Of a DNA stretch of 64,000 bases, positions 21,639 to 51,604 are shown piece after piece. Source of the stretch: Escherichia coli (GTDB taxonomy: Bacteria > Pseudomonadota > Gammaproteobacteria > Enterobacterales > Enterobacteriaceae); the NCBI RefSeq assembly GCF_024502345.1, contig NZ_JALDNN010000001.1, one strand, 5' to 3'. Position 1 is the stretch's first letter. Each line of letters begins with the position of its first letter. Position numbers and translations under genes: made by a program. The notes below the pieces were generated by a model. That model was not told the origin of the DNA. It was given only the letters and a program-made list of their open reading frames with translations, and did not search any database.

Positions 21639-22047
21639 TCCAGGTGGGTAGTTGGGTTTCATCCTGCCATGCGCAATCGACAATGTGAAAACCCTGCGCC
21701 TGGTAAAAATCTATCGCCGGTTGATTTTTTTGATAAACCTCCAGCATCAGATGGGGATGGCGCTGTTGCACATACTGCATCAGCGCCTTACCAATACCGC
21801 GCCTGACGGCCTTCGGTGCGACAAACATCGCTGCCAGAAATCGGCCTTCCATAATGCTGACAAAACCGAGAAGCTTACTGTCTTCTTCCCAGACCCAGTT
21901 TTGTGCGTTGGCAAGATAGGCATCCCGCACCAGTGGAATGCACTCGCGCCAGTAATTCGCTTTTATAAAGGGATGGCCCCAGGTTGTACTTTCCAGCCAC
22001 AGTTCGAGGATCGCGGGGAGTTCTGAACGTTGCGCTTCCCTAATCAT
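21607..22047 (-). CDS. yiaC: GNAT-family N-acetyltransferase YiaC, 146 aa
   Basis: 146-aa ORF with GNAT motif (RRGIGKALM); 3' end overlaps bisC 3' end. Confidence 0.85.
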
Positions 22048-22607
22048 GGTTTATTTCCCGGATAGCAACAGCAGCCAACCACATGATCATTCACCAGCCC
22101 ACATGCCTGCATAAAGGAGTAACAGATTGTGGTACCGACAAACTTAAAACCACGTTTTTTCAGTGCCTTAGATAGGGCGTCGGAGGCGGGCGTAGATGTG
22201 GGGATTTCGCTCAACGTTGTGGCTTGTGTCACCTGTGGCTGATGATTTACAAACGACCAGACAAAGTCGGCAAACGGTTCGCCGTTCTGTTCCATTTGCA
22301 GGTACGCCCGCGCATTACCAATAATTGCCTGAATTTTCCCGCGATGGCGGATAATCCCGGCGTCCTGTACCAGTCTTTCGACATCCTCTTCCTGCATTGC
22401 GGCAACCTTCACCGGATCGAACTGATGAAAGCAGGCGCGATAGTTTTCGCGTTTTTTGAGGACGGTGATCCACGATAACCCAGCCTGCTGCCCTTCCAGG
22501 CAGATCATTTCGAACAGTTTTTTACTGTCAGTTTCAGGCACGCCCCACTCATTATCATGGTAGGCAATATAAAGCGGGTCCTGACTCACCCAGCCGCAAC
22601 GTTCCAT
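22044..22607 (-). CDS. tag: DNA-3-methyladenine glycosylase I (Tag), 187 aa
   Basis: Start at MERCGWVSQDPLYIAYHDNEWGVPE; 4-nt overlap with yiaC start; ORF track's 242-aa version is an upstream extension. Confidence 0.93.
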   Translation of the reverse strand: MERCGWVSQDPLYIAYHDNEWGVPETDSKKLFEMICLEGQQAGLSWITVLKKRENYRACFHQFDPVKVAAMQEEDVERLVQDAGIIRHRGKIQAIIGNARAYLQMEQNGEPFADFVWSFVNHQPQVTQATTLSEIPTSTPASDALSKALKKRGFKFVGTTICYSFMQACGLVNDHVVGCCCYPGNKP

Positions 22608-22697
22608 ACTTTCCCTCGCTATGTACCCGATCGTAAAAATTTCAGCCGCTTTTCTTGACGCATCGGTGAAAAAGTCAATATTTAATACAGGGCTACT

Positions 22698-32891: not shown

Positions 32892-33008
32892 GAACCTCCG
32901 GGGGCAGGGAGGTTCGGCTCGACGTAGGCCTGATAAGACGCGTCAGCGTCGCATCAGGCAACGGCACCGCACTCATTGTCGGATGCAGCGTACCCGTCTT
33001 ATCCGACC
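32892..33008. repeat. BIME-like cluster of REP palindromes
   Basis: aggcctgataagacgcgtcagcgtcgcatcaggc and gtcggatgcagcgtacccgtcttatccgac REP-type units plus gaacctcc...ggaggttc hairpin. Confidence 0.6.
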
Positions 33009-33584
33009 TAAACGGCAGCACACCACACATTTCCCTGCCAAATTTGCGCCCCATATCTCACAATCCATTAACGGATTTGTGACAGAAACCATTGTCTTTT
33101 TTTATATTTGCTTAAATCTTTTTTTGCGTTACTTATGGCTGGCGCTGGCATTTTCCGCTGTGCGTTTTAGCGTTCATGGTATTAATCGCTCAGATATCCA
33201 CCTTTTCCTCAGATTTTTTCATTAAATGCATAAAACTTAATCACCAAATGTTGCTAAATATTAAGCTGATTGTTCTGGTCATGTTGGAGTAGCACAAATT
33301 TCTCTGCTGCAAATAGCTGTTTGAAGTTTTTTTAATCTTTGTTTGTGGATTCTCACCGTTGGTGTAAATCCCGGTTGGCTGTATTGACGTTTTCACATTC
33401 TGTTGACAGATTGTAGGTCACGAGGGGCATTTTATGGAGGATCCGCACTGTTACACTGATGTTAATTAGTACGGCATCCCCACCTCATAACGTTGACCCG
33501 ACCGGGCAAAAAACAAAAAAGGTCAGGCAGCGACAACCCACTGCAAAGGGTTAAAACAACAAACATCACAATTGGAGCAGAATA

Positions 33585-35192
33585 ATGCGTATTTCCTTGA
33601 AAAAGTCAGGGATGCTGAAGCTTGGTCTCAGCCTGGTGGCTATGACCGTCGCAGCAAGTGTTCAGGCTAAAACTCTGGTTTATTGCTCAGAAGGATCTCC
33701 GGAAGGGTTTAACCCGCAGCTGTTTACCTCCGGTACCACCTATGACGCCTCTTCCGTACCGCTTTATAACCGCCTGGTTGAATTTAAAATCGGCACCACC
33801 GAAGTGATCCCGGGCCTCGCTGAAAAGTGGGAAGTCAGCGAAGACGGTAAAACCTATACCTTCCATCTGCGTAAAGGTGTGAAGTGGCACGACAATAAAG
33901 AATTCAAACCGACGCGCGAAATGAATGCCGATGACGTGGTGTTCTCGTTCGATCGTCAGAAAAACGCGCAAAACCCGTACCATAAAGTTTCTGGCGGCAG
34001 CTACGAATACTTCGAAGGCATGGGCTTGCCAGAGCTGATCAGCGAAGTGAAAAAGGTGGACGATAACACCGTTCAGTTTGTGCTGACTCGCCCGGAAGCG
34101 CCGTTCCTCGCTGACCTGGCAATGGACTTCGCCTCTATTCTGTCAAAAGAATATGCTGATGCGATGATGAAAGCCGGTACACCGGAAAAACTGGACCTCA
34201 ACCCAATCGGAACCGGTCCGTTCCAGTTACAGCAGTATCAAAAAGATTCCCGTATCCGCTACAAAGCGTTTGATGGCTACTGGGGCACCAAACCGCAGAT
34301 CGATACGCTGGTTTTCTCTATTACCCCTGACGCTTCCGTGCGTTACGCGAAATTGCAGAAAAATGAATGCCAGGTGATGCCGTACCCGAACCCGGCAGAT
34401 ATCGCCCGCATGAAGCAGGATAAATCTATCAACCTGATGGAAATGCCGGGGCTGAACGTCGGTTATCTCTCGTATAACGTGCAGAAAAAACCACTTGATG
34501 ACGTGAAAGTTCGCCAGGCTCTGACCTACGCGGTGAACAAAGACGCGATCATCAAAGCGGTTTATCAGGGCGCGGGTGTATCAGCGAAAAACCTGATCCC
34601 GCCAACCATGTGGGGCTATAACGACGACGTTCAGGACTACACCTACGATCCTGAAAAAGCGAAAGCCTTGCTGAAAGAAGCGGGTCTGGAAAAAGGTTTC
34701 TCCATCGACCTGTGGGCGATGCCGGTACAACGTCCGTATAACCCGAACGCTCGCCGCATGGCGGAGATGATTCAGGCAGACTGGGCGAAAGTCGGCGTGC
34801 AGGCCAAAATTGTCACCTACGAATGGGGTGAGTACCTCAAGCGTGCGAAAGATGGCGAGCACCAGACGGTAATGATGGGCTGGACTGGCGATAACGGGGA
34901 TCCGGATAACTTCTTCGCCACTCTGTTCAGCTGCGCCGCCTCTGAACAAGGCTCCAACTACTCAAAATGGTGCTACAAACCGTTTGAAGATCTGATTCAA
35001 CCGGCGCGTGCTACCGACGACCATAACAAACGCGTTGAACTGTACAAGCAAGCGCAGGTGGTGATGCACGATCAGGCTCCGGCACTGATCATCGCTCACT
35101 CCACCGTGTTTGAACCGGTACGCAAAGAAGTTAAAGGCTATGTGGTTGATCCATTAGGCAAACATCACTTCGAAAACGTCTCTATCGAATAA
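33585..35192 (+). CDS. dppA: Periplasmic dipeptide-binding protein DppA, 535 aa
   Basis: 535-aa ORF with signal peptide; first gene of dppABCDF; long upstream leader. Confidence 0.95.
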   Translation: MRISLKKSGMLKLGLSLVAMTVAASVQAKTLVYCSEGSPEGFNPQLFTSGTTYDASSVPLYNRLVEFKIGTTEVIPGLAEKWEVSEDGKTYTFHLRKGVKWHDNKEFKPTREMNADDVVFSFDRQKNAQNPYHKVSGGSYEYFEGMGLPELISEVKKVDDNTVQFVLTRPEAPFLADLAMDFASILSKEYADAMMKAGTPEKLDLNPIGTGPFQLQQYQKDSRIRYKAFDGYWGTKPQIDTLVFSITPDASVRYAKLQKNECQVMPYPNPADIARMKQDKSINLMEMPGLNVGYLSYNVQKKPLDDVKVRQALTYAVNKDAIIKAVYQGAGVSAKNLIPPTMWGYNDDVQDYTYDPEKAKALLKEAGLEKGFSIDLWAMPVQRPYNPNARRMAEMIQADWAKVGVQAKIVTYEWGEYLKRAKDGEHQTVMMGWTGDNGDPDNFFATLFSCAASEQGSNYSKWCYKPFEDLIQPARATDDHNKRVELYKQAQVVMHDQAPALIIAHSTVFEPVRKEVKGYVVDPLGKHHFENVSIE

Positions 35193-35342
35193 TTAAAAGC
35201 CATACCCGGTGGTGCTGTGCCTCTGCGTGCAGCGCCATCCGGCAGCAATACTTCATTCCCTGCCCGACCTGGGCGGGAATTGATTTGTGAGCAATACAGA
35301 CACGCAGTTCCAGGCTGCGGGTCACTACAGAGAATCCGGGTT

Positions 35343-36362
35343 ATGTTGCAGTTTATTCTCCGACGTTTGGGACTCGTCATCCCCACGTTTATCGGTATTA
35401 CCCTTCTCACATTTGCCTTTGTCCACATGATCCCGGGCGATCCGGTGATGATCATGGCGGGCGAACGTGGGATCTCCCCAGAGCGTCACGCGCAGTTGCT
35501 GGCTGAACTCGGCTTAGATAAACCGATGTGGCAGCAGTATCTCCATTACATTTGGGGCGTTATGCATGGCGATCTAGGCATTTCAATGAAAAGCCGCATC
35601 CCGGTTTGGGAAGAGTTCGTGCCGCGCTTCCAGGCCACGCTGGAACTTGGTGTCTGCGCGATGATTTTTGCTACGGCAGTCGGTATTCCGGTTGGTGTGC
35701 TGGCTGCGGTTAAACGCGGTTCCATTTTCGATCACACAGCGGTTGGCCTGGCGCTGACAGGTTATTCAATGCCTATCTTCTGGTGGGGAATGATGCTGAT
35801 CATGCTGGTTTCGGTGCACTGGAACCTGACGCCCGTCTCCGGTCGCGTGAGCGATATGGTGTTCCTCGATGATTCCAATCCGTTAACCGGTTTTATGCTG
35901 ATCGACACCGCCATCTGGGGTGAAGACGGTAACTTTATCGATGCCATCGCCCATATGATCTTGCCCGCCATTGTGCTGGGTACTATTCCGCTGGCGGTCA
36001 TTGTGCGTATGACACGCTCCTCGATGCTGGAAGTGCTGGGTGAAGATTACATCCGCACCGCGCGCGCCAAAGGGTTGACCCGCCTTAGGGTGATTATCGT
36101 CCATGCGCTGCGTAACGCGATGCTGCCGGTAGTGACCGTTATCGGCCTCCAGGTGGGAACATTGCTGGCGGGGGCGATTCTGACCGAAACCATCTTCTCG
36201 TGGCCTGGTCTGGGGCGCTGGTTGATTGACGCGCTGCAACGCCGCGATTATCCGGTGGTTCAGGGCGGCGTATTGCTGGTGGCAACGATGATTATCCTCG
36301 TCAACCTGCTGGTCGATCTGCTGTACGGCGTGGTGAACCCGCGTATTCGTCATAAGAAGTAA
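35343..36362 (+). CDS. dppB: Dipeptide ABC transporter permease DppB, 339 aa
   Basis: Start at MLQFILRRLGL; ORF track start 35217 is an upstream extension. Confidence 0.93.
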   Translation: MLQFILRRLGLVIPTFIGITLLTFAFVHMIPGDPVMIMAGERGISPERHAQLLAELGLDKPMWQQYLHYIWGVMHGDLGISMKSRIPVWEEFVPRFQATLELGVCAMIFATAVGIPVGVLAAVKRGSIFDHTAVGLALTGYSMPIFWWGMMLIMLVSVHWNLTPVSGRVSDMVFLDDSNPLTGFMLIDTAIWGEDGNFIDAIAHMILPAIVLGTIPLAVIVRMTRSSMLEVLGEDYIRTARAKGLTRLRVIIVHALRNAMLPVVTVIGLQVGTLLAGAILTETIFSWPGLGRWLIDALQRRDYPVVQGGVLLVATMIILVNLLVDLLYGVVNPRIRHKK

Positions 36363-36371
36363 GGGGACATC

Positions 36372-37274
36372 ATGTCACAGGTTACTGAAAATAAAGTGAT
36401 TAGCGCACCGGTGCCGATGACCCCGTTACAGGAGTTCTGGCACTATTTTAAACGCAACAAAGGCGCGGTCGTCGGGCTGGTTTACGTCGTCATCGTGCTG
36501 TTTATCGCGATCTTTGCCAACTGGATTGCTCCCTATAACCCGGCGGAACAATTCCGCGATGCGCTGCTTGCCCCGCCCGCCTGGCAGGAAGGCGGCAGCA
36601 TGGCGCACTTGCTGGGCACCGATGACGTAGGGCGTGATGTGCTGTCGCGCCTGATGTACGGCGCGCGTTTATCGCTGCTGGTTGGCTGTCTGGTGGTGGT
36701 GTTATCGCTGATTATGGGCGTTATTCTCGGCCTGATCGCCGGTTACTTTGGCGGCCTGGTCGATAACATCATCATGCGCGTGGTCGATATCATGCTGGCG
36801 CTGCCAAGTCTGCTGTTGGCACTGGTGCTGGTGGCGATGTTCGGCCCGTCGATTGGTAACGCCGCGCTGGCGCTGACCTTTGTTGCCTTGCCGCACTATG
36901 TGCGCTTAACCCGCGCCGCCGTGCTGGTGGAAGTTAACCGCGATTACGTTACCGCGTCTCGCGTGGCAGGTGCCGGGGCGATGCGTCAGATGTTTATTAA
37001 CATCTTCCCGAACTGCCTTGCGCCTCTGATTGTTCAGGCGTCGCTCGGTTTCTCTAACGCCATTCTCGATATGGCTGCTCTTGGTTTCCTCGGCATGGGG
37101 GCGCAGCCGCCAACGCCGGAGTGGGGCACCATGCTCTCCGACGTGTTGCAGTTCGCGCAAAGCGCCTGGTGGGTCGTGACCTTCCCGGGTCTGGCGATCC
37201 TGCTGACGGTGCTGGCATTTAACCTGATGGGTGACGGTCTGCGTGACGCGCTCGATCCCAAACTGAAGCAGTAA
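36372..37274 (+). CDS. dppC: Dipeptide ABC transporter permease DppC, 300 aa
   Basis: 300-aa permease ORF. Confidence 0.95.
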
Positions 37275-37284
37275 GAGGTTCGAA

Positions 37285-38268
37285 ATGGCGTTATTAAATG
37301 TAGATAAATTATCGGTGCATTTCGGCGACGAAAGCGCACCGTTCCGCGCCGTAGACCGCATCAGCTACAGCGTAAAACAGGGCGAAGTGGTCGGGATTGT
37401 GGGTGAGTCCGGCTCTGGTAAATCGGTCAGTTCGCTGGCGATTATAGGGCTGATTGATTATCCGGGCCGCGTAATGGCGGAAAAGCTGGAGTTTAACGGT
37501 CAGGATTTACAGCGTATCTCAGAAAAAGAGCGCCGCAACCTGGTGGGTGCCGAAGTGGCGATGATCTTCCAGGACCCGATGACCAGCCTTAACCCGTGCT
37601 ACACAGTGGGTTTCCAGATCATGGAAGCGATTAAGGTGCATCAGGGCGGTAATAAGAGCACTCGTCGTCAGCGGGCGATTGACTTGTTGAATCAGGTCGG
37701 TATTCCCGATCCGGCTTCGCGTCTGGATGTTTACCCGCATCAGCTTTCCGGCGGCATGAGCCAGCGCGTGATGATTGCGATGGCCATTGCCTGTCGGCCA
37801 AAACTGCTGATTGCCGATGAACCAACCACTGCGCTGGACGTGACCATTCAGGCGCAAATCATTGAACTACTGCTGGAGCTACAGCAGAAAGAGAACATGG
37901 CGCTGGTGTTAATTACCCATGACCTGGCGCTGGTGGCGGAAGCGGCACATAAAATCATCGTGATGTATGCCGGTCAGGTGGTGGAAACGGGCGATGCGCA
38001 CGCCATCTTCCATGCGCCGCGTCACCCGTATACTCAGGCATTGCTGCGTGCGCTGCCGGAATTTGCTCAGGACAAAGAACGTCTGGCATCGTTGCCTGGC
38101 GTTGTTCCCGGCAAGTACGACCGCCCGAACGGCTGCCTGCTTAACCCGCGCTGCCCCTATGCCACTGACAGATGTCGCGCTGAAGAACCGGCGCTGAATA
38201 TGCTCGCTGACGGGCGTCAGTCCAAATGCCATTACCCACTTGATGATGCCGGGAGGCCCACACTATGA
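37285..38268 (+). CDS. dppD: Dipeptide ABC transporter ATP-binding protein DppD, 327 aa
   Basis: Walker A GESGSGKS, signature LSGGMSQR. Confidence 0.95.
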
Positions 38269-39269
38269 GTACGCAAGAGGCCACCTCGCAACAACCGCTG
38301 TTGCAGGCTATCGACCTGAAAAAACATTATCCGGTGAAGAAAGGCATGTTCGCGCCGGAACGTCTGGTTAAAGCGCTGGATGGCGTTTCGTTTAACCTTG
38401 AACGTGGCAAAACGCTGGCGGTAGTAGGTGAATCTGGCTGCGGTAAATCGACCCTCGGTCGGTTGTTGACGATGATTGAAACACCTACCGGCGGTGAACT
38501 GTATTACCAGGGGCAGGATCTGCTCAAGCACGATCCGCAGGAGCAGAAACTGCGTCGGCAGAAAATCCAGATCGTCTTCCAGAACCCCTATGGTTCGCTG
38601 AATCCGCGTAAAAAAGTCGGGCAAATTCTTGAAGAGCCGCTGCTTATTAACACCAGCTTAAGCAAAGAACAGCGTCGGGAAAAAGCCCTGTCGATGATGG
38701 CGAAAGTCGGCCTGAAAACCGAGCACTATGACCGCTATCCGCATATGTTCTCCGGCGGACAACGTCAGCGTATCGCTATTGCCCGTGGTCTGATGCTCGA
38801 CCCGGACGTGGTGATTGCCGATGAACCGGTCTCCGCGCTGGACGTCTCGGTGCGTGCACAGGTGCTCAACCTGATGATGGATTTGCAGCAGGAACTGGGG
38901 CTTTCTTATGTCTTCATCTCCCACGACCTGTCGGTGGTGGAGCACATTGCTGATGAAGTGATGGTGATGTACCTGGGCCGCTGCGTGGAGAAGGGAACGA
39001 AGGACCAAATCTTCAATAACCCGCGCCATCCGTACACTCAGGCGCTACTTTCCGCGACGCCGCGCCTGAATCCGGACGATCGCCGCGAGCGCATCAAACT
39101 CACCGGTGAGCTGCCAAGCCCGCTGAATCCACCGCCGGGCTGCGCGTTTAACGCCCGCTGTCGTCGGCGCTTCGGCCCCTGCACCCAGTTGCAGCCGCAG
39201 CTAAAAGACTACGGCGGTCAACTGGTAGCTTGTTTTGCTGTTGATCAGGATGAAAATCCGCAGCGTTAA
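38265..39269 (+). CDS. dppF: Dipeptide ABC transporter ATP-binding protein DppF, 334 aa
   Basis: Walker [10 protein letters not shown], signature FSGGQRQR; 4-nt overlap with dppD. Confidence 0.95.
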
Positions 39270-39298
39270 CTCACAAAACCGGGGCCATGCGCTCCGGT

Positions 39299-40359
39299 TT
39301 ACTCAATCAGCTTCAACAGTGGCGACAAGCATAGCAAAATGCCGTAAAGCAGAATTAGCCAGGCTTTAAATCCGCGAAGTTTTTCCAGTTGTGCGACTTT
39401 ATAGATCAGGAAAAACGGAATGAGGCACGACACAATGCCATATAACGGGCTTCCCAACTGAAAGAACACCAGCACCGATACACGAAACGAAACCCAAATC
39501 GTCAACGTAATGACGATAAAAGCGCAGATCGCCAGAGTCAGCATGCGTGAGTTAATTTTCTTGGTATCAATAATTCGGCTTAACAGATTGAGAATAATGC
39601 CTTTAATAGCCTCGTGGAAACCGAGATAAATGCCAAAGAATGCGGTCAGTACGGCAAAGATATTCAGCACCGTAGAGGTGATATGAATGATATGTCCAGG
39701 GATCACCTGCGCGGCCAGTGCCAGTGCCGAGATATTTTGTTCAAAGGCAGAAACGGCTTCTTCGTGGCTAATTGAGAAGGTAAACGAAAAGGCAAAAAAC
39801 AGGATCACCGCGATGAGCGTGATATAACTAATTCGATGGGTACGCAGCGCGAGCCGGGTTGCCAGTACTTTATCTGCTTCCCGTTTACGATAGGCAATAT
39901 TCATTGGGTTAAGTACCTGAATAAATACCGCAGAAAAGAAGCAAAATGGAATGGTAAGCAGGACATCGCGGAAAAAGACGGAGGCTTGCGGGAAGGCGGT
40001 TATATTGGCGAAATTCCAGTGCGGGATCATCGCAAAACCGAACACGACAATAATCCCTACTTTGACCACCACCATTGGCCCAGAAATCTTAAACAGTAAT
40101 CGTTCACCACCAGACGCAATCGCTACCAGTACGGCGAAAATAGCGACTTTATAAAGTAGAGATTGTGAAAGATCGGCATCGGTTAAACCGAAGGTTTTCA
40201 GGTACGAGGCGCTGTCGAAAACCACGGAGAGAGAGTAGATAAAAATCCCGTGGATAATCATCAAAAAGTAGATAACCCCGAGGAAAATTCCCCAGTTCTT
40301 CCCCAGGTAATGACTGATAATATCGGTGTAGTCATTACAGGAATCGCTTTCAGAAAGGG
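39299..40359 (-). pseudogene. yhjV: 5'-truncated yhjV (amino acid/H+ symporter family transporter); N-terminal ~70 codons and promoter replaced by IS1
   Basis: Hydrophobic transporter reading frame runs with no stop up to the IS1 left end at 40360; ORF track's 321-aa version starts at an internal TTG/ATG. Confidence 0.8.
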
Positions 40360-40414
40360 GGTGATGCTGCCAACTTACTGATTTAGTGTATGATGGTGTT
40401 TTTGAGGTGCTCCA

Positions 40415-40690
40415 GTGGCTTCTGTTTCTATCAGCTGTCCCTCCTGTTCAGCTACTGACGGGGTGGTGCGTAACGGCAAAAGCACCGCCGGACATCAGCG
40501 CTATCTCTGCTCTCACTGCCGTAAAACATGGCAACTGCAGTTCACTTACACCGCTTCTCAACCCGGTACGCACCAGAAAATCATTGATATGGCCATGAAT
40601 GGCGTTGGATGCCGGGCAACCGCCCGCATTATGGGCGTTGGCCTCAACACGATTTTCCGCCATTTAAAAAACTCAGGCCGCAGTCGGTAA
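40415..40690 (+). CDS. insA: IS1 InsA (transposition repressor / N-terminal transposase part), 91 aa
   Basis: [43 protein letters not shown]... zinc-finger plus HTH. Confidence 0.92.
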
Positions 40691-41112
40691 CCTCGCGCAT
40701 ACAGCCGGGCAGTGACGTCATCGTCTGCGCGGAAATGGACGAACAGTGGGGATACGTCGGGGCTAAATCGCGCCAGCGCTGGCTGTTTTACGCGTATGAC
40801 AGGCTCCGGAAGACGGTTGTTGCGCACGTATTCGGTGAACGCACTATGGCGACGCTGGGGCGTCTTATGAGCCTGCTGTCACCCTTTGACGTGGTGATAT
40901 GGATGACGGATGGCTGGCCGCTGTATGAATCCCGCCTGAAGGGAAAGCTGCACGTAATCAGCAAGCGATATACGCAGCGAATTGAGCGGCATAACCTGAA
41001 TCTGAGGCAGCACCTGGCACGGCTGGGACGGAAGTCGCTGTCGTTCTCAAAATCGGTGGAGCTGCATGACAAAGTCATCGGGCATTATCTGAACATAAAA
41101 CACTATCAATAA
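40609..41112 (+). CDS. insB: IS1 InsB reading frame (expressed as InsAB' transposase by -1 frameshifting)
   Basis: 167-aa ORF in -1 frame overlapping insA 3' end, typical IS1 organisation. Confidence 0.88.
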
Positions 41113-41127
41113 GTTGGAGTCATTACC

Positions 41128-42013
41128 GGATTCCGGTGCCAGCGTGGCGGTCGGCTGGCGAAATGACGTCTGGAGCTGGGATATCGGTACCACGCCGATG
41201 GGCTTCAACGTGGTGGATGTGGTCGGCGGCATCAGTTACAGCGATGATATCGGGCCGCTGGGTTACACCGTTAACGCCCACCGTCGGCCCATCTCCAGTT
41301 CTTTGCTGGCCTTTGGTGGGCAAAAAGACTCCCCGAGCAATACCGGGAAAAAATGGGGTGGCGTACGTGCCGACGGTGTGGGGCTAAGTCTGAGCTACGA
41401 TAAAGGTGAAGCAAATGGCGTCTGGGCATCGCTTAGTGGCGACCAGTTAACCGGTAAAAATGTCGAAGATAACTGGCGCGTGCGCTGGATGACGGGCTAT
41501 TACTATAAGGTCATTAACCAGAACAATCGCCGCGTCACAATCGGCCTGAACAACATGATCTGGCATTACGACAAAGATCTGAGTGGTTACTCACTCGGTC
41601 AGGGCGGTTACTACAGTCCGCAGGAATACCTGTCGTTTGCCATACCGGTGATGTGGCGGGAGCGCACGGAAAACTGGTCGTGGGAGCTGGGGGCGTCTGG
41701 CTCGTGGTCGCATTCACGCACCAAAACCATGCCGCGTTATCCGCTGATGAATCTGATCCCGACCGACTGGCAGGAAGAAGCTGCGCGGCAATCCAACGAT
41801 GGCGGCAGCAGTCAGGGCTTCGGCTATACGGCGCGGGCATTACTTGAACGACGTGTTACTTCCAACTGGTTTGTCGGCACGGCAATTGATATCCAGCAGG
41901 CGAAAGATTACGCCCCCAGCCATTTCCTGCTCTACGTACGTTATTCCGCCGCCGGATGGCAGGGTGACATGGATTTACCGCCGCAGCCGCTGATACCTTA
42001 CGCCGACTGGTAA
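41128..42013 (+). pseudogene. bcsC: 3' remnant (about 295 codons) of cellulose synthase operon protein BcsC (outer-membrane beta-barrel part)
   Basis: Frame continues from IS1 right end; ends ...PQPLIPYADW; full BcsC is about 1150 aa so the TPR region and start are absent. Confidence 0.85.
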
Positions 42014-42094
42014 GTTTTCAGATAGCGCCTCTCTTAATGCCGCTGCGATCGGGTATACTCGGGCGGCAATCTGGGATTTCCGGGGGGAGACAAT

Positions 42095-44083
42095 TTGCGC
42101 GTAAGTCGCTCGTTAACAATCAAGCAGATGGCAATGGTGGCAGCCGTTGTCCTGGTGTTCGTTTTTATTTTTTGCACCGTTTTGCTGTTCCATCTGGTCC
42201 AGCAGAATCGCTATAACACGGCTACGCAACTGGAAAGCATTGCTCGCTCTGTCCGCGAACCTTTATCTTCAGCCATTTTGAAAGGTGATATTCCCGAAGC
42301 GGAAGCTATTCTTGCCAGCATTAAACCGGCAGGCGTGGTCAGCCGTGCCGATGTAGTGCTGCCCAACCAGTTCCAGGCGCTGCGTAAAAGTTTTATTCCA
42401 GAGCGCCCGGTGCCGGTAATGGTTACTCGCCTGTTTGAGCTACCGGTTCAAATCTCGCTGGGCGTTTACTCGCTCGAACGTCCGGCAAATCCGCAGCCAA
42501 TTGCCTATCTGGTGCTACAGGCGGATTCCTTCCGTATGTATAAGTTCGTGATGAGCACCCTCTCAACGTTAGTGACCATTTACTTACTTTTGTCGTTAAT
42601 ATTGACGGTGGCGATTAGCTGGTGCATTAACCGCCTGATTTTGCATCCGTTACGCAATATTGCTCGCGAACTTAACGCCATCCCAGCCCAGGAGCTTGTT
42701 GGTCACCAACTGGCATTACCGCGTCTGCATCAGGATGATGAAATCGGTATGTTGGTGCGCAGTTACAACCTCAACCAGCAATTGCTGCAGCGCCATTATG
42801 AAGAACAGAACGAAAATGCGATGCGCTTCCCAGTGTCGGATTTGCCGAACAAAGCCTTGCTGATGGAGATGCTGGAGCAGGTTGTCGCGCGTAAACAAAC
42901 CACCGCGCTGATGATCATCACCTGTGAAACCCTGCGTGATACTGCGGGTGTGCTGAAAGAGGCGCAACGAGAAATTCTGCTGCTGACGCTGGTGGAAAAA
43001 CTCAAATCGGTACTGTCGCCACGTATGATCCTCGCGCAGATTAGCGGTTATGACTTTGCTGTCATTGCCAATGGTGTACAGGAACCGTGGCACGCAATCA
43101 CCTTAGGTCAGCAAGTGCTCACTATCATGAGCGAGCGCCTGCCGATTGAACGTATTCAACTCCGTCCGCACTGTAGCATTGGCGTGGCGATGTTCTACGG
43201 CGATCTCACCGCCGAACAGCTTTACAGTCGCGCTATTTCTGCGGCATTTACCGCTCGCCATAAAGGCAAGAATCAGATTCAGTTCTTTGATCCGCAGCAG
43301 ATGGAAGCCGCCCAGAAGCGGTTGACGGAAGAGAGCGATATCCTTAATGCACTGGAAAATCATCAGTTTGCTATTTGGTTACAGCCACAGGTCGAGATGA
43401 CCAGCGGTAAACTGGTCAGTGCGGAAGTGTTACTGCGTATCCAGCAACCGGATGGCAGTTGGGACCTGCCGGATGGCTTAATCGAGCGCATTGAGTGCTG
43501 TGGGCTGATGGTTACCGTCGGTCACTGGGTGCTGGAAGAGTCCTGTCGATTGCTTGCAGCCTGGCAAGAGCGCGGCATTATGCTGCCCTTGTCGGTAAAC
43601 CTCTCTGCGCTGCAACTGATGCACCCGAATATGGTGGCGGATATGCTGGAACTGTTAACCCGCTATCGCATTCAGCCGGGAACACTGATTCTGGAAGTGA
43701 CAGAAAGCCGACGTATTGACGACCCTCATGCTGCGGTGGCAATCCTCCGTCCGCTGCGCAATGCTGGAGTTCGGGTGGCGCTGGATGATTTCGGCATGGG
43801 CTACGCAGGGCTGCGTCAGCTGCAGCATATGAAATCGTTGCCAATCGACGTTCTGAAAATCGACAAAATGTTTGTTGAAGGCTTGCCGGAAGATAGCAGC
43901 ATGATTGCTGCAATTATCATGCTGGCGCAGAGCCTGAACTTACAAATGATTGCCGAAGGCGTGGAGACTGAAGCACAACGCGACTGGCTGGCAAAAGCGG
44001 GCGTTGGTATTGCCCAGGGCTTCCTTTTTGCTCGTCCACTCCCTATTGAAATCTTCGAAGAGAGTTACCTGGAAGAAAAGTAG
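42095..44083 (+). CDS. pdeK: c-di-GMP phosphodiesterase PdeK (TM-HAMP-degenerate GGDEF-EAL), start uncertain
   Basis: 662-aa ORF from TTG with ggggagac RBS; EAL-domain motifs (EVTE, DDFG) in C-terminal half. Confidence 0.85.
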
Positions 44084-44229
44084 CTACCCCAAACTGATTA
44101 CAAAACTTTAAAAAGTGCTGGTTTGTGCGAGCCAGCTCAAACTTTTTAACCTTTTTGTTTCAATTATGATCCAGGTACATTTCTGTGATGTTGTCTGGGT
44201 GTTATTTTAAGGCCGCAGGTACCCCATAA

Positions 44230-45552
<1,323 letters not shown>

Positions 45553-45772
45553 TCTCATCACTTATGCCCGCACTCCCTTCCCCGAGTGCGGGTGTTTGCG
45601 CATAATTGACCCCTGTGCCTGAACTTACCACCTGGGTGAGTTCAGGTTTATTTCACTTCTTCCGTGACATTTTCATGTTCTTGCGGTCTAACACGAAGTG
45701 TTTTTAACGTCATTTAGACTGACCGACAACGGGCAGTTTTTTTATTACCAGGATAGTTGATCAGGGGTTCAC

Positions 45773-47269
45773 ATGCAGGGCACAAAAATTCGACTTTTAG
45801 CGGGCGGTTTGCTGATGATGGCCACTGCTGGCTATGTGCAGGCAGATGCGCTCCAGCCTGATCCAGCATGGCAACAGGGGACGCTTTCCAACGGTTTACA
45901 GTGGCAAGTGCTGACCACCCCCCAGCGTCCCAGCGATCGTGTTGAAATTCGCCTGCTGGTTAATACCGGTTCGCTCGCCGAAAGTACACAACAGAGCGGT
46001 TACAGTCACGCCATCCCTCGTATTGCGCTAACGCAAAGCGGTGGCCTTGACGCAGCACAGGCGCGTTCATTGTGGCTGCAGGGGATCGACCCTAAACGCC
46101 CGATGCCGCCGGTAATTGTCTCTTATGACACCACGCTGTTTAATCTGAGTTTGCCCAATAACCGTAACGATTTGCTGAAAGAGGCGCTCTCTTATCTGGC
46201 AAATGCCACTGGCAAACTGACTATCACGCCAGAAACCATCAACCACGCGCTGCAAAGTCAGGACATGGTGGCAACCTGGCCTGCCGATACTAAAGAGGGC
46301 TGGTGGCGCTATCGTCTGAAAGGGTCAACCTTGTTAGGTCACGATCCTGCCGATCCGCTGAAACAACCCGTTGAAGCGGAAAAGATTAAAGATTTCTATC
46401 AGAAATGGTACACCCCGGATGCAATGACGCTGCTGGTGGTGGGAAACGTGGATGCGCGCTCGGTTGTCGACCAAATCAACAAAACGTTTGGCGAACTGAA
46501 AGGCAAACGTGAAACACCGGCTCCGGTGCCGACGCTTTCTCCGCTGCGTGCGGAAGCGGTGAGTATTATGACTGACGCGGTGCGTCAGGACCGGTTATCT
46601 ATCATGTGGGATACGCCGTGGCAGCCGATTCGTGAATCAGCCGCACTGCTGCGCTACTGGCGTGCGGACCTGGCCCGTGAGGCGCTGTTCTGGCATGTTC
46701 AGCAAGCGTTAAGCGCCAGTAACAGCAAAGACATCGGTCTTGGATTTGACTGCCGTGTGCTGTATCTGCGTGCGCAGTGTGCCATCAACATCGAATCACC
46801 AAACGACAAGCTGAACAGCAACCTTAATCTGGTGGCGCGTGAACTGGCGAAGGTTCGCGATAAAGGTCTGCCGGAAGAAGAGTTCAATGCGTTAGTGGCG
46901 CAAAAGAAACTGGAGCTGCAGAAACTGTTTGCCGCCTATGCACGAGCTGATACCGATATTCTGATGGGTCAGCGGATGCGTTCGTTGCAAAATCAGGTTG
47001 TCGATATCGCGCCGGAGCAGTATCAGAAACTGCGGCAGGATTTCCTTAACAGCCTGACTGTGGAGATGTTAAATCAGGATCTGCGTCAGCAGTTGTCGAA
47101 TGATATGGCGTTAATACTGCTGCAGCCGAAAGGCGAGCCAGAATTTAACATGAAAGCGTTGCAGGCGGCCTGGGATCAAATCATGGCCCCATCTACCGCC
47201 GCTGCGACCACCTCTGTCGCCACGGATGACGTACATCCTGAAGTGACGGATATTCCACCTGCACAGTAA
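45773..47269 (+). CDS. yhjJ: Periplasmic M16-family peptidase-like protein YhjJ, 498 aa
   Basis: 498-aa ORF with signal peptide; synteny between dctA and kdgK. Confidence 0.85.
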   Translation: MQGTKIRLLAGGLLMMATAGYVQADALQPDPAWQQGTLSNGLQWQVLTTPQRPSDRVEIRLLVNTGSLAESTQQSGYSHAIPRIALTQSGGLDAAQARSLWLQGIDPKRPMPPVIVSYDTTLFNLSLPNNRNDLLKEALSYLANATGKLTITPETINHALQSQDMVATWPADTKEGWWRYRLKGSTLLGHDPADPLKQPVEAEKIKDFYQKWYTPDAMTLLVVGNVDARSVVDQINKTFGELKGKRETPAPVPTLSPLRAEAVSIMTDAVRQDRLSIMWDTPWQPIRESAALLRYWRADLAREALFWHVQQALSASNSKDIGLGFDCRVLYLRAQCAINIESPNDKLNSNLNLVARELAKVRDKGLPEEEFNALVAQKKLELQKLFAAYARADTDILMGQRMRSLQNQVVDIAPEQYQKLRQDFLNSLTVEMLNQDLRQQLSNDMALILLQPKGEPEFNMKALQAAWDQIMAPSTAAATTSVATDDVHPEVTDIPPAQ

Positions 47270-47364
47270 TGCCTGATGGTGATGAGTTAGCACAACCATC
47301 AGGTATTTATGGATGAGCTGGATAGAGGGGTAACACTTTATCCAGCCTTTTGCATATGCTGCGT

Positions 47365-48294
47365 TTACGCTGGCATCGCCTCACGCGGGATAATCGCGCC
47401 GCGATACTGAATAACGGTACTTGCAGTCAAATGCCCACGTTTCGCGGCATCTTCCGCACTACCGCCTGTCAAACGTACCGCCAGATAACCGGCACTGAAA
47501 GAGTCGCCAGCTGCGGTGGTATCGATCACTTTTTCTTTCGGCAGTTTCACCGCCGGAACATCCACTAACCCTTCGCCAGCAATGGACACCAGGCAAGAAT
47601 CCGCCCCGCGTTTCACCACCACTTCTTTCACGCCCGCGTTATGGGTGCGCGCAATGACGTCTTCCACCGGCTGTTGACCCCACAGCGCGTCTTCATCGTC
47701 CAGCGTCAGGAAGGCGATATCCGTGCATTCCAGCATTTGCTGGTACACCTGCTGTGTCTCTGCTTTGCTGGCCCACAGGCGCGGACGATAGTTATTGTCG
47801 AAAATCACTTTTCCGCCGTTGGCGCGGCATTCGCGCAGCAGGGAAAGCAGTTTCTCGCGGCTGGTCGGGCTTAAGATCGCCAGGCTAATCCCGCTCAGGT
47901 AGAGATAATCGAAATTCGCCAGCTCTGCACAAATCGCCGCAGACTGCTCGCTCTCCAGCCAGAATTTGGCAGCGGCTTCGTTACGCCAGTAGTAGAACGT
48001 ACGTTCGCCGGTGCTGTCGGTTTCAATGTAGTAAAGGCCCGGCAGACGGTTTTCCATCCGTTGGGTCAGGGAAGTATCAACGTTCTCGCCGTGCCAGGCG
48101 TCCAGCATCTGCTGGCTAAAACTGTCCGTTCCCAGCGCCGTTACGTAATGAACGGTTAATGCCGCAGGATCGACCTGACGGGCGATATAGACGGAAGTGT
48201 TCAGGGTATCGCCGCCGAAACCGCGCTTAACGTCCGCGCCTTTCTCGGAAAGCTCAATCATGCATTCGCCAATCACGGCAATCTTTTTGGACAT
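47365..48294 (-). CDS. kdgK: 2-dehydro-3-deoxygluconokinase KdgK, 309 aa
   Basis: Start at MSKKIAVIGECMIEL; PfkB-family sugar kinase; ORF track's 425-aa form is an upstream extension. Confidence 0.9.
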   Translation of the reverse strand: MSKKIAVIGECMIELSEKGADVKRGFGGDTLNTSVYIARQVDPAALTVHYVTALGTDSFSQQMLDAWHGENVDTSLTQRMENRLPGLYYIETDSTGERTFYYWRNEAAAKFWLESEQSAAICAELANFDYLYLSGISLAILSPTSREKLLSLLRECRANGGKVIFDNNYRPRLWASKAETQQVYQQMLECTDIAFLTLDDEDALWGQQPVEDVIARTHNAGVKEVVVKRGADSCLVSIAGEGLVDVPAVKLPKEKVIDTTAAGDSFSAGYLAVRLTGGSAEDAAKRGHLTASTVIQYRGAIIPREAMPA

Positions 48295-48525
48295 AGTCGT
48301 GAACCTGATCTGTAAAAAATTAGCGTTAGTTTGCGCTGTGGTGGTTTGCTGGTCAACCATATTAAAACAGTGTTCCATTATTTTTTTGAGCCAGAACGTA
48401 TTCCTGAAAGATTCCGTTGTGGAGTGAGGAAATTTACCCCGGCCAGGCGGTAAAGTTCTGCCCTTACGCGCCGATAATCTTTGTCGAGTCCAGGCAGCAT
48501 CACTTTTAAACACAGGACATCTTTG

Positions 48526-49293
48526 ATGATAAGGCAGGTTATCCAGCGAATAAGCAACCCTGAAGCAAGCATCGAGAGCTTGCAGGAACGGCGTTTTTGG
48601 TTGCAGTGTGAGCGTGCTTACACCTGGCAGCCGATCTATCAAACATGCGGGCGGTTAATGGCCGTGGAGCTATTAACGGTGGTCACGCATCCCTTGAACC
48701 CTTCGCAACGCCTGCCGCCGGATCGCTATTTTACTGAAATCACCGTCAGCCATCGGATGGAGGTTGTGAAAGAGCAGATTGATTTGCTGGCGCAAAAAGC
48801 CGACTTCTTTATAGAGCACGGCCTGCTGGCATCGGTCAATATTGATGGCCCTACGCTCATCGCCCTGCGTCAGCAACCAAAAATCCTGCGCCAGATTGAG
48901 CGTCTTCCCTGGCTGCGTTTCGAACTGGTGGAACACATCCGCCTGCCGAAAGATTCAACCTTTGCCTCGATGTGTGAATTTGGCCCGCTGTGGCTGGATG
49001 ATTTTGGCACCGGGATGGCAAATTTCTCTGCGCTAAGTGAAGTGCGTTATGACTACATCAAAATCGCGCGAGAGCTGTTCGTGATGCTGCGTCAGTCGCC
49101 GGAAGGCCGCACACTCTTTTCTCAGCTTTTACATCTAATGAATCGCTATTGTCGCGGGGTGATTGTCGAGGGCGTAGAAACGCCGGAAGAGTGGCGTGAT
49201 GTACAGAACTCGCCCGCATTCGCCGCACAAGGCTGGTTTCTTTCACGCCCGGCACCGATAGAAACGCTGAATACGGCGGTTCTGGCGCTATAA
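48526..49293 (+). CDS. pdeH: c-di-GMP phosphodiesterase PdeH (stand-alone EAL domain), 255 aa
   Basis: Start at MIRQVIQRISNPEAS; EAL-domain motifs (ELLTVV, DDFGTG, EGVE). Confidence 0.9.
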   Translation: MIRQVIQRISNPEASIESLQERRFWLQCERAYTWQPIYQTCGRLMAVELLTVVTHPLNPSQRLPPDRYFTEITVSHRMEVVKEQIDLLAQKADFFIEHGLLASVNIDGPTLIALRQQPKILRQIERLPWLRFELVEHIRLPKDSTFASMCEFGPLWLDDFGTGMANFSALSEVRYDYIKIARELFVMLRQSPEGRTLFSQLLHLMNRYCRGVIVEGVETPEEWRDVQNSPAFAAQGWFLSRPAPIETLNTAVLAL

Positions 49294-49362
49294 GCTGCCT
49301 CATTTTCCGCCTGGCTGGACTATCTTTAGGACTGGCACAGGAAGAATATGAGGAAGCGAACG

Positions 49363-51423
49363 ATGAGCAAGGCAGGCAAAATAACCGCTGCGATTTCAGG
49401 GGCTTTCTTGTTGTTGATTGTCGTGGCGATCATTTTGATTGCAACTTTTGACTGGAATCGACTCAAACCGACCATCAACCAGAAAGTCTCTGCGGAGTTG
49501 AATCGTCCGTTCGCTATCCGTGGCGATCTGGGCGTGGTGTGGGAGCGGCAAAAACAAGAAACTGGCTGGCGCAGCTGGGTGCCATGGCCCCATGTACACG
49601 CGGAAGACATCATTCTTGGCAATCCACCGGATATTCCCGAAGTCACGATGGTGCATTTGCCACGCGTAGAGGCAACGCTGGCACCGCTGGCGCTGCTGAC
49701 CAAAACGGTCTGGCTGCCGTGGATCAAGCTCGAAAAGCCCGACGCGCGCCTGATTCGCCTCTCTGAAAAGAACAATAACTGGACGTTTAATCTTGCCAAC
49801 GATGACAACAAAGACGCGAATGCAAAGCCGTCGGCATGGTCGTTTCGGCTGGATAATATTCTGTTCGATCAAGGGCGGATCGCTATTGATGACAAAGTAA
49901 GCAAAGCGGATCTGGAAATTTTTGTCGATCCGTTAGGCAAGCCGCTGCCGTTCAGCGAAGTTACTGGATCGAAAGGTAAAGCGGATAAAGAAAAGGTCGG
50001 CGATTACGTTTTTGGCCTGAAGGCGCAGGGACGTTATAACGGTGAACCGCTCACGGGTAAGGGTAAAATTGGCGGTATGCTGGCGCTGCGTGGTGAAGGG
50101 ACGCCGTTTCCGGTACAGGCTGATTTCCGTTCAGGTAATACCCGTGTTGCTTTTGATGGCGTCGTGAATGACCCAATGAAGATGGGCGGTGTCGATTTAC
50201 GGCTTAAATTTTCTGGCGATTCACTGGGTGATCTCTATGAACTGACGGGCGTTCTGCTGCCCGATACCCCGCCGTTTGAAACGGATGGTCGGCTGGTAGC
50301 GAAAATCGACACTGAAAAATCGTCGGTCTTTGATTATCGCGGCTTTAATGGGCGAATTGGCGATAGCGATATCCACGGTTCTCTGGTCTACACCACCGGC
50401 AAGCCACGACCAAAACTGGAAGGTGATGTCGAGTCGCGGCAATTGCGGCTGGCGGACCTGGGACCGTTGATTGGCGTTGATTCCGGGAAAGGGGCAGAAA
50501 AGTCGAAACGGTCTGAACAGAAGAAGGGCGAAAAAAGCGTTCAGCCTGCGGGTAAAGTGCTGCCTTATGACCGCTTCGAAACCGATAAATGGGACGTCAT
50601 GGATGCCGATGTTCGTTTCAAAGGCCGACGTATCGAGCATGGCAGTAGCCTGCCGATTAGCGATCTTTCTACTCATATCATCCTCAAAAATGCTGACCTG
50701 CGCCTGCAACCGCTGAAATTTGGCATGGCGGGCGGCAGCATTGCGGCGAATATTCATCTGGAAGGCGATAAAAAGCCGATGCAGGGGCGGGCAGATATTC
50801 AGGCTCGTCGACTGAAACTGAAAGAACTGATGCCCGATGTGGAACTGATGCAGAAGACGCTGGGGGAAATGAACGGTGACGCGGAACTACGCGGTAGCGG
50901 TAACTCGGTGGCGGCGCTTTTAGGCAACAGTAACGGCAACCTGAAACTGTTGATGAATGACGGGCTGGTGAGCCGCAACCTGATGGAGATTGTTGGGCTG
51001 AATGTCGGCAACTACATTGTCGGTGCGATATTTGGTGACGATGAGGTGCGGGTGAACTGCGCGGCGGCGAATCTGAATATTGCCAACGGCGTGGCGCGCC
51101 CGCAGATTTTTGCTTTCGATACTGAGAACGCGTTGATTAACGTTACCGGCACGGCAAGTTTTGCTTCGGAACAGCTGGATTTGACTATTGATCCGGAGAG
51201 TAAAGGTATTCGGATTATCACACTGCGTTCGCCGCTGTATGTGCGGGGGACGTTTAAAAATCCGCAGGCTGGGGTGAAAGCCGGACCGTTGATTGCCCGT
51301 GGTGCTGTTGCTGCGGCACTGGCAACGCTGGTAACACCTGCGGCGGCGTTGCTGGCACTGATCTCACCTTCCGAAGGGGAGGCTAATCAGTGCCGGACGA
51401 TTTTGTCGCAGATGAAGAAGTGA
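49363..51423 (+). CDS. yhjG: AsmA-family protein YhjG, 686 aa
   Basis: N-terminal TM anchor then long periplasmic AsmA-like region; start at MSKAGKI (alternative 49348). Confidence 0.8.
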   Translation: MSKAGKITAAISGAFLLLIVVAIILIATFDWNRLKPTINQKVSAELNRPFAIRGDLGVVWERQKQETGWRSWVPWPHVHAEDIILGNPPDIPEVTMVHLPRVEATLAPLALLTKTVWLPWIKLEKPDARLIRLSEKNNNWTFNLANDDNKDANAKPSAWSFRLDNILFDQGRIAIDDKVSKADLEIFVDPLGKPLPFSEVTGSKGKADKEKVGDYVFGLKAQGRYNGEPLTGKGKIGGMLALRGEGTPFPVQADFRSGNTRVAFDGVVNDPMKMGGVDLRLKFSGDSLGDLYELTGVLLPDTPPFETDGRLVAKIDTEKSSVFDYRGFNGRIGDSDIHGSLVYTTGKPRPKLEGDVESRQLRLADLGPLIGVDSGKGAEKSKRSEQKKGEKSVQPAGKVLPYDRFETDKWDVMDADVRFKGRRIEHGSSLPISDLSTHIILKNADLRLQPLKFGMAGGSIAANIHLEGDKKPMQGRADIQARRLKLKELMPDVELMQKTLGEMNGDAELRGSGNSVAALLGNSNGNLKLLMNDGLVSRNLMEIVGLNVGNYIVGAIFGDDEVRVNCAAANLNIANGVARPQIFAFDTENALINVTGTASFASEQLDLTIDPESKGIRIITLRSPLYVRGTFKNPQAGVKAGPLIARGAVAAALATLVTPAAALLALISPSEGEANQCRTILSQMKK

Positions 51424-51429
51424 TGATAA

Positions 51430-51592
51430 TTGCCGGATGTCTGACATCCGGCAATTAAACAGATTTAGATTGTTGGCAAAGTGTGCTTTGTTCATGCCGG
51501 ATGCGGCGTTAACGCCTTATCCGGCCTACAAATCCTTGTGAATTCAATATATTGTATGGAAATTCAGGCCTGATAAGCGTAGCGCATCAGGC
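51430..51592. repeat. Terminator-like palindrome plus two REP units (BIME) between convergent yhjG and yhjE
   Basis: ttgccggatgtc/gacatccggcaa palindrome; gccggatgcggcgttaacgccttatccggc and aggcctgataagcgtagcgcatcaggc REP elements. Confidence 0.6.
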
Positions 51593-51604
51593 TTTTCACA
51601 CTTA

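Follow-up and report, generated by a model that had tools for sequence, protein, structure and literature searches.

Elements of the IS1 family are about 768 bp long, have imperfect terminal inverted repeats of about 23 bp, and carry insA and insB' with an A6C frameshift site; a simple insertion leaves a direct target-site duplication of 9 bp, occasionally 8 bp. The classical IS1-mediated adjacent deletions reportedly go back to the work of Reif and Saedler in 1975 on the gal region of E. coli K-12. Where an insertion sequence (IS) lacks its duplication, the absence is attributed to adjacent deletion or to recombination between two IS copies (PMC11708052). The window analyzed here, a 64-kb stretch of E. 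coli DNA, resembles both the classical IS1 deletions and the IS deletions of the LTEE (PMC11708052): one IS lies at a novel joint, there is no duplication, the flanking gene or genes are truncated, and the lost segment is uninterrupted in relatives. Those deletions arose under laboratory selection, whereas the window comes from a natural isolate, for which we infer the mechanism with no precursor observed.

Loss of function in the cellulose genes is convergent in ExPEC ST95, other STs, Shigella, and Salmonella (Nhu et al. 2024, PMC10881479). Like the window, these are natural lineages of Enterobacteriaceae in which the cellulose/pEtN-cellulose pathway has been inactivated, recurrently and independently. 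However, the passages of that paper considered here describe frameshifts and loss-of-function mutations, and the terms “IS1,” “insertion sequence,” and “bcsC” do not occur in it, whereas an IS1-bounded deletion has taken away the whole locus in the window.

Of 5,426 complete E. coli genomes, 89 lack bcsA. IS1-bounded bcs deletions occur in at least four other E. coli, all with different endpoints, and IS-free ones are also found:

GN25: yhjV'-IS1-'bcsC
Res13-Lact-PEB20-37-A O9:H10: yhjV-IS1-'bcsB
CP8-3_Sichuan: yhjV'-IS1-bcsR
WP7-S17-ESBL-04: 'bcsE-IS1-'bcsC
E. coli HS: bcsG'-'bcsC, IS-free, annotated “cellulose synthase operon protein C, truncation” (ABV07944.1)
81EVA: ldrD'-'bcsC, IS-free

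The first four match the window in element, locus, orientation, and missing duplication, and they too have lost the cellulose genes in part or completely, but their breakpoints differ and neither window junction is present in them. Of these five IS1-bounded deletions, only those of the window and GN25 run from inside yhjV into bcsC. HS and 81EVA have similarly lost bcsA and bcsB and kept a bcsC 3' remnant beside pdeK, and the HS endpoint in bcsC is just 16 nt from that of the window; unlike the window, they have no IS at the joint, an intact yhjV, and different backgrounds (99.0% identity). HS had been suggested as the source of the window by a 289-aa BcsC remnant ORF and was ruled out by its different, IS-free deletion and 97-99% identity. 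In addition, DFL.5 has an IS1-bounded rearrangement at yhjV with no duplication and other endpoints, and one Logan contig (L033), which we count apart from both the IS1-bounded and the IS-free deletions, has a bcs deletion with other endpoints again. The deletion in the window adds one allele to this known pattern of independent E. coli bcs losses, and is not novel in kind.

Structure of the yhjV-IS1-bcsC joint

The joint and its surroundings contain the following features:

39299..40359, minus strand: yhjV remnant, codons 71-423 plus stop (K-12 yhjV nt 212-1272, by blastn)
40306..40315, plus strand: native yhjV 10-mer GGTAATGACT, matching the IS1 right repeat in its outermost 10 nt; any role is putative
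40360..41127, plus strand: complete IS1, IS1A/IS1B-like, 768 bp, at the deletion joint
40360..40382, plus strand: IS1 left terminal inverted repeat (IRL), an exact match to GGTGATGCTGCCAACTTACTGAT
40415..40690, plus strand: insA, 91 aa (NCBIfam NF033558 positions 1-81, plus the IS1 zinc-binding domain)
40609..41112, plus strand: insB' frame, 167-aa ORF (NF033558 positions 76-199; 143.8 bits, cut-off 100)
41105..41127, plus strand: IS1 right terminal inverted repeat (IRR), ATCAATAAGTTGGAGTCATTACC
41128..42013, plus strand: bcsC remnant, last 294 codons plus stop (K-12 bcsC nt 2588-3474, by blastn; 886-887 nt)
42095..44083, plus strand: pdeK/hmsP, intact, full-length, no stops (NF008807, 782.8 bits, cut-off 733)
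48526..49293, plus strand: pdeH, intact, full-length, no stops (NF008617, 461.9 bits, cut-off 190)

The element lies exactly where the initial annotation had placed it, at 40360..41127, with 768 bp between terminal inverted repeats. These repeats are 23 nt long and imperfect (18/23 complementary, 78%), and the element is 99.0-99.3% identical to annotated IS1A/IS1B copies of other E. coli. An A6C programmed -1 frameshift motif is found at 40666..40672, within TTTAAAAAAC at 40663-40672, and the InsAB' transposase is the predicted product after frameshifting from insA into the insB' frame. The copy is full-length and apparently functional. It is the sole IS of the 64-kb window, in which no other IS1 copy was found.

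To the left of the element, yhjV has lost its first 211 nt relative to K-12 (by blastn), that is, 70 codons plus 1 nt, in agreement with the earlier estimate of about 70 codons. The remnant is 98.6% identical to K-12, with neither gaps nor stops, and is identical to the intact yhjV of strain AHM8C212RI at 1061/1061 positions; it thus shows neither pseudogene decay nor any hint that the event is old. It covers only positions 60-397 of NCBIfam TIGR00814, with a score under the cut-off, and its open frame runs on into IS1, the earliest candidate start codons being at 40264 and 40261. The 10-mer GGTAATGACT is situated 44 nt outside the left end of IS1 and was also picked up as an inverted repeat; outside IS1 it occurs once in the 64-kb window, against about 0.12 occurrences expected.

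To the right, 2,587 nt of bcsC (75% of the gene) are gone, and the initial annotation was correct that only about its last 295 codons are left, the exact figure being 294 sense codons and the stop. This remnant is 99.3% identical to K-12, again with no gaps or stops, and represents the C-terminal beta-barrel part of the protein, lacking the signal peptide and the TPR region (NCBIfam NF008520 positions 864-1157 of 1157; 646 bits against a cut-off of 858).

By blastn, the left flank (window 35202..40359) corresponds to K-12 MG1655 3,705,931..3,700,774 and the right flank (window 41127/8..52713) to K-12 MG1655 from 3,686,586 downwards. What is missing between them is 3,686,587..3,700,773, or 14,187 bp, which in K-12 contains ldrD, rdlD, bcsG, bcsF, bcsE, yhjR/bcsR, bcsQ, bcsA, bcsB, bcsZ, and the 5' part of bcsC, the same genes that had initially been listed as lost; a blastn search found no match to this interval across the whole 64-kb window. 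The loss amounts to 15,159 bp in comparison with AHM8C212RI, the closest available relative, in which ldr is present in three copies. The earlier figure of 13-14 kb was therefore of the right order but slightly low (14.19 kb against K-12, 15.16 kb against AHM8C212RI). Both flanks are otherwise collinear and co-oriented with K-12, with the single IS1 exactly at the joint.

The 9-mers on either side of IS1, CAGAAAGGG and GGATTCCGG, differ, as had been pointed out, so there is no target-site duplication. As controls, two simple IS1 insertions that other strains carry in yhjV each have a perfect 9-bp duplication, and none of five rearrangement-associated IS1 copies has one. Since the duplication is absent, this IS1 copy is not a simple insertion, although its identity as IS1 is unaffected. 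The allele can be recognized by its junction strings of 25-26 nt, GCTTTCAGAAAGGGGGTGATGCTGCC and GGAGTCATTACCGGATTCCGGTGCC. The yhjV breakpoint adjoins an AT-rich run (TTTTTAAATAAAT in K-12), and the bcsC site has 67% G+C.

Could yhjV and the 3' end of bcsC be naturally adjacent, through an ancestral absence of bcs, with IS1 simply inserted between them? Both genes are truncated mid-frame, and a simple insertion would leave the 9-bp duplication that is missing here; together, the truncations and the missing duplication effectively refute this explanation. In addition, bcsA is present at ≥80% coverage in 5,312 of the 5,426 complete genomes, among which no lineage with such an adjacency, raised at the outset as a possible objection, was found, and all of the locus is still present in the genome that best matches the left flank, albeit with an internal stop in bcsA.

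Both pdeK, which follows the bcsC remnant on the strand shared with the IS1 genes, and pdeH remain, as had been claimed. By contrast with these, bcsA, bcsB, and full-length BcsC of the E. coli-type (type II) bcs cellulose secretion system are all absent from the 64-kb window. The xyl operon and nearly all other genes of the window are intact. A Shigella origin, which the combination of IS1 with cellulose loss had suggested, was rejected for this reason, for the single IS in 64 kb, and for the E. coli label of the exactly matching proteins.

Occurrence of the junctions in other genomes and contigs

We found neither junction, and no simple-IS1 precursor at either endpoint, in the 5,426 complete E. 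coli genomes, JGI metagenome contigs, or GTDB representatives; similarly, literature searches (IS1 with bcs, bcsC with IS1) returned no description of this specific allele. We found the exact allele only in the source lineage, with the addition of one Logan contig matching each junction. The nearest flanks among the genomes searched are only 98.9-99.0% identical, too distant to date or polarise the event.

The left joint is matched by a contig from an independent read set, ERR14375843 (L035), which matches 32933..40359 with 100% identity and stops precisely at this joint. The right joint is matched by a contig from SRR16526992 (L036), which covers the whole IS1 and the identical IS1-bcsC joint on a different SNP background (0.7% difference from the window in the adjacent 1.1 kb). 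The bases to the left of IS1 in L036 differ from those of the window, with only 2 nt shown there, and its IS1 differs from ours at 6 positions, all in one central patch at 40621-40755. Please note that L036 could be chimeric; it is short, and its numbering resembles that of a metagenome assembly.

Some candidate markers had to be set aside. Truncated ORFs (271- or 289-aa BcsC; 258-, 308-, or 320-aa YhjV) proved non-specific as markers of the allele, mostly representing frameshifted or interrupted genes in error-prone assemblies; the only junction-specific ORF is one of 299 aa that starts inside IS1. Plasmids with IS1 and bcsC (pHI1B-o111 and others) have full-length bcsC followed by IS1, not the window joint. 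Co-oriented IS1 copies in or near yhjV are present in 15 of the 5,426 genomes, with 294, 567, 615, 675, 994, or 1061 nt of yhjV left. This does not make yhjV an IS1 hot region: the breakpoints are scattered and there is no enrichment, the 15 observed comparing with about 24 expected, a rough estimate from a median of roughly 9-10 IS1 copies per genome and a 2.7-kb target.

It is worthwhile to consider here whether the joint is an assembly artefact, with two IS1 copies flanking an intact bcs locus that the assembler collapsed. Short-read assemblies do break at, or collapse, repeats of 768 bp, the absence of the bcs genes is established for the 64-kb window only, and L035, with its end at the edge of IS1, fits a deletion as well as a collapse. 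Nevertheless, we regard such an artefact as very improbable. An NCBI contig that encodes exactly the proteins of the window is chromosome-scale (4,736,520 bp) and probably long-read, and such an assembly resolves 768-bp repeats; two IS1 copies would each need a duplication, with the 5' parts of yhjV and bcsC then beside IS1, which is not what is seen; and equivalent IS1-bounded deletions are present in several independent complete genomes. As read from the sequence, the structure of the window is that of a genuine chromosomal deletion associated with IS1, in a natural strain of E. coli.

Routes to the deletion

The initial annotation proposed an IS1-mediated adjacent deletion or recombination between two IS1 copies, and our results support this pair of mechanisms, which is the standard explanation for an IS without duplication at a joint (PMC11708052). 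The two have identical end products, and the sequence of the window fits both.

Our main reading, to which we give a probability of about 0.5, is that IS1 inserted at one endpoint and an intramolecular adjacent deletion then removed 14.2-15.2 kb. IS1 would first have entered one endpoint by ordinary transposition. Replicative transposition of IS1 within the same molecule, into the AT-rich 5' part of yhjV, would then have removed all DNA from IS1 as far as the new target, and with it one copy of the first 9-bp duplication; work by Galas in 1980 and Zerbib in 1985 is said to have found that IS1 prefers AT-rich targets. The same IS1-bcsC joint in a second strain background (L036) mildly favors bcsC as the first IS1 site, and L036 presents the pattern that would be expected, with the same mild preference, if IS1 stayed fixed in bcsC while the events to its left varied.

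Tentatively, and as the less probable route, RecA may instead have recombined two direct IS1 copies, one in yhjV and one in bcsC, each once with its own 9-bp duplication, to leave one hybrid IS1. This would yield the same product of one IS1, no duplication, and collinear flanks, and it is a frequent cause of missing duplications (PMC11708052). Independent IS1 insertions are found elsewhere both in yhjV and in bcsC (for example, MS 21-1 and CP182368.1 for yhjV, and strains 81, N9, and C for bcsC), and L036 has IS1 at the same bcsC site in another background. On the other hand, two prior, independent, same-orientation insertions in one lineage are required, no genome among those searched has a precursor insertion with its duplication at these exact sites, and the window IS1 does not present a left/right hybrid pattern against L036, the 6 differences falling in one central patch.

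Capture of IS1 at a double-strand break during the deletion, a single event with no transposase-type target cutting, would also leave IS1 exactly at the joint with no duplication, and the IS-free deletions of HS and 81EVA indicate that the region breaks and deletes without an IS. Such capture has been proposed for IS5 and IS481 (Ngan et al. 2024, PMC11708052), but it is hypothetical and not demonstrated for IS1, and all 14 IS deletions of the LTEE were explained as ordinary adjacent deletions (PMC11708052). Moreover, the right joint common to L036 argues for a resident IS1. We consider capture at a break improbable, and adjacent deletion from an IS1 already in place remains our main reading.

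Predicted consequences for the strain and for cellulose loss

Because the genes are absent from the 64-kb window, we predict a strain that produces neither cellulose nor pEtN-cellulose, has lost one Ldr/Rdl toxin-antitoxin locus, and has an inactive YhjV transporter; the c-di-GMP phosphodiesterases PdeK and PdeH are expected to persist. An altered biofilm/rdar morphotype is predicted, and possibly altered host inflammation (compare PMC10881479). No link to virulence can be made for the strain of the window.

The deletion of the window raises no new question. In a reading that we think doubtful, the IS1-'bcsC joint would be an allele shared by two or more E. coli backgrounds, or, alternatively, its exact site and the yhjV 10-mer would be true IS1 target hot spots. 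If the joint is shared, the cellulose-loss allele would be old and maintained, or moved between lineages by recombination; if the sites are hot spots, the yhjV-bcs locus would be predisposed to repeated loss. Either way, were this true, bcs loss in commensal E. coli would be selected and mechanistically channelled, and no accident. Whole-locus deletions bounded by IS1 contribute, beside point mutations, to the recurrent inactivation of the cellulose pathway.

The IS1 element and the missing interval

Re-reading of the sequence bore out the initial annotation of 39299..42013, in which the following element lies:

40360..41127, IS1, 768 bp

No other IS1 copy lies in the 64-kb window. The left end of the element is an exact match to the canonical left terminal inverted repeat (IRL), the 23-nt ends pair as the expected imperfect inverted repeat, and the A6C frameshift motif is found at 40666..40672. 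The NCBIfam IS1 transposase model is matched in two halves by the insA and insB' frames, and identity to annotated IS1A/IS1B copies of other E. coli is 99.0–99.3%.

The endpoints of the deletion were placed by blastn against K-12 MG1655. The left flank ends at K-12 3,700,774, leaving nt 212–1272 of yhjV (minus strand, first 211 nt gone), and on the right the match resumes at K-12 3,686,586, leaving nt 2588–3474 of bcsC, that is, its last 294 codons and the stop. These values agree with the earlier estimates of about 70 missing 5' codons of yhjV and about 295 remaining codons of bcsC. The 14,187 bp of K-12 between the endpoints have no blastn match anywhere in the 64-kb window; as had been claimed, ldrD, rdlD, bcsG, bcsF, bcsE, yhjR/bcsR, bcsQ, bcsA, bcsB, bcsZ, and the first 2,587 nt of bcsC are gone with them. 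Relative to strain AHM8C212RI, whose yhjV is identical to the remnant (1061/1061) and which carries three ldr copies, 15,159 bp are missing. Because strains differ in ldr copy number, the true size of the loss depends on the ancestor. The IS1-bounded loss of the cellulose locus is confirmed as real.

The remainder of the window

Elsewhere the window and K-12 3,737,187 to 3,663,698 are collinear, except for the IS150 of K-12 and the following island, which K-12 does not have:

24888..30790, lpf fimbrial island, 5.9 kb, between yhjX and eptB; the lpfA-E long polar fimbriae operon by annotation of matching genomes

Intact copies were found for 43 of the 47 K-12 genes tested, including pdeK and pdeH, the linked c-di-GMP phosphodiesterase genes that had been said to remain. 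The other four are the truncated yhjV and bcsC and the frameshifted gadA and yhjY. In gadA (60115..61517), a 2-bp CG insertion at 60452–60453 relative to K-12 creates a premature stop (codon 138 of 467), and the gene is apparently a pseudogene; gadX, gadW, and the remainder of the acid-fitness region that lies in the window are intact. In yhjY (22765..23462), the A8 tract at nt 9 of the gene reads as A7, so that codon 12 becomes a premature stop; the frameshift may be genuine, or it may reflect a sequencing error in the homopolymer. The stretch dppB-dppF (35343..39269) is unusually divergent, with 95.4–97.4% identity to K-12 against 98.5–99.9% for neighbouring genes, and looks like a recombinant patch. 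Between yhjE and yhjG, about 130 nt (51467..51596) share 86% identity with the dppA-dppB intergenic region of K-12, suggestive of a dispersed intergenic repeat.

Junctions, target sites, and the route of deletion

The 9-mers adjoining IS1, CAGAAAGGG and GGATTCCGG, do indeed differ, and there is no duplication. IS1 copies at the yhjV/bcs locus of other strains served as controls: two simple insertions within yhjV (MS 21-1 and CP182368.1) are each flanked by a perfect 9-bp duplication, and none of the five copies bordering deletions or rearrangements has one (GN25, WP7-S17-ESBL-04, CP8-3_Sichuan, Res13 O9:H10, and DFL.5). The IS1 of the window belongs to this duplication-free class.

The conventional routes to a duplication-free IS at a deletion joint are adjacent deletion, in which a resident copy transposes replicatively within the molecule, and homologous recombination of two direct copies (PMC11708052). 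Either would yield exactly the product seen in the window, and the two are inseparable by sequence alone; the proposal of an IS1-mediated event of one or the other kind, and not a simple insertion, is supported. Capture of an IS at a break during deletion, a hypothetical mechanism from the same paper, is possible. Collapse of two IS1 copies during assembly is unlikely in a contig of 4.7 Mb.

The source lineage is not among the 5,426 complete RefSeq genomes; the left flank reaches at most 98.9% identity there (over 16 kb), and the right flank 99.0% (over 12 kb). Records of its exact DppF (WP_256632700.1) are limited to a single NCBI genome and a single Logan run. Neither junction was found in the complete genomes, JGI metagenome contigs, or GTDB species representatives. 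Logan contig L035 (ERR14375843) is 100% identical to 32933..40359 and ends exactly at the IS1 edge. A second Logan contig, L036 (SRR16526992), was retrieved via a 299-aa ORF that begins within IS1 and is specific to the junction. Its positions 1..1918 correspond to window 40359..42273, covering the entire IS1 and an identical IS1|bcsC joint, with eight differences across 1,146 nt of bcsC'/pdeK and six within IS1. The two bases left of IS1 are unlike those of the window, and its flank reaches at best 99.7% identity to complete genomes. L036 may derive from an allele shared with the window, from a repeated insertion of IS1 at this site, or from chimeric assembly.

We mildly favour adjacent deletion over recombination of two direct copies, with a resident IS1 at the bcsC joint that would have transposed within the same molecule. 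This is because the IS1|bcsC joint recurs in a second background (L036) with a different left side, and because the yhjV breakpoint adjoins an AT-rich run and the bcsC site is 67% G+C. AT-rich targets are preferred by IS1.

Native yhjV also contains GGTAATGACT, the outermost 10 nt of the right inverted repeat (IRR) of IS1, at 40306..40315, 44 nt from the left end of the element. It is the single copy outside IS1 in the window (about 0.12 expected per window). The inverted 9-mer AGTCATTAC lies at 40330..40338, 21 nt from that end, and on the other side of GGTAATGACT another strain has a simple IS1 insertion 14 nt off. We do not claim a hot spot, because the other yhjV breakpoints are scattered and IS1 in or near yhjV (15/5,426 genomes) is close to the expectation from IS1 density. 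The likeness is at present no more than a curiosity.

Loss of the cellulose locus in other E. coli

Of the 5,426 complete genomes, 89 lack bcsA and a further 25 have <80% coverage of it. Among the independent alleles at this locus are those below.

Other alleles at the cellulose locus
GN25: yhjV'-IS1-'bcsC, breakpoints other than those of the window
Res13 O9:H10: yhjV-IS1-'bcsB
CP8-3_Sichuan: yhjV'-IS1-bcsR
WP7-S17-ESBL-04: 'bcsE-IS1-'bcsC
DFL.5: yhjV'-IS1 joined to an unrelated region
81EVA: ldrD'-'bcsC, without IS
HS (CP000802.1): bcsG'-'bcsC, without IS; endpoint 16 nt from that of the window
Logan contig L033: bcsA'-yhjV deletion

The HS deletion ends at ~7990..8000 of the CP000802.1 record, equivalent to window 41143 near the IS1|bcsC junction, and its joint has CGTG microhomology. 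By a rough estimate, the chance of two independent endpoints this close in a 3.5-kb gene is about 1%.

In AHM8C212RI (NZ_CP104613.1, 25565..28183), the strain nearest to the window on the left flank, the bcs locus is complete, yet the annotation of bcsA includes an internal stop, a further independent inactivation of cellulose synthesis. Several plasmids of E. coli, among them pHI1B-o111 (NZ_CP066840.1, 1307..5784), have a 'bcsZ fragment and full-length bcsC bordered by IS200/IS605 and IS1; these plasmids have captured a chromosomal cellulose gene.

A 2024 publication (PMC10881479) reported that cellulose genes have lost function convergently in Shigella, Salmonella, and sequence types of E. 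coli, and described how this loss affects virulence. The deletion described here adds to a well-known kind, the IS1-bounded deletion and the recurrent loss of the cellulose locus, and its consequences are predictable from the genes that are gone.
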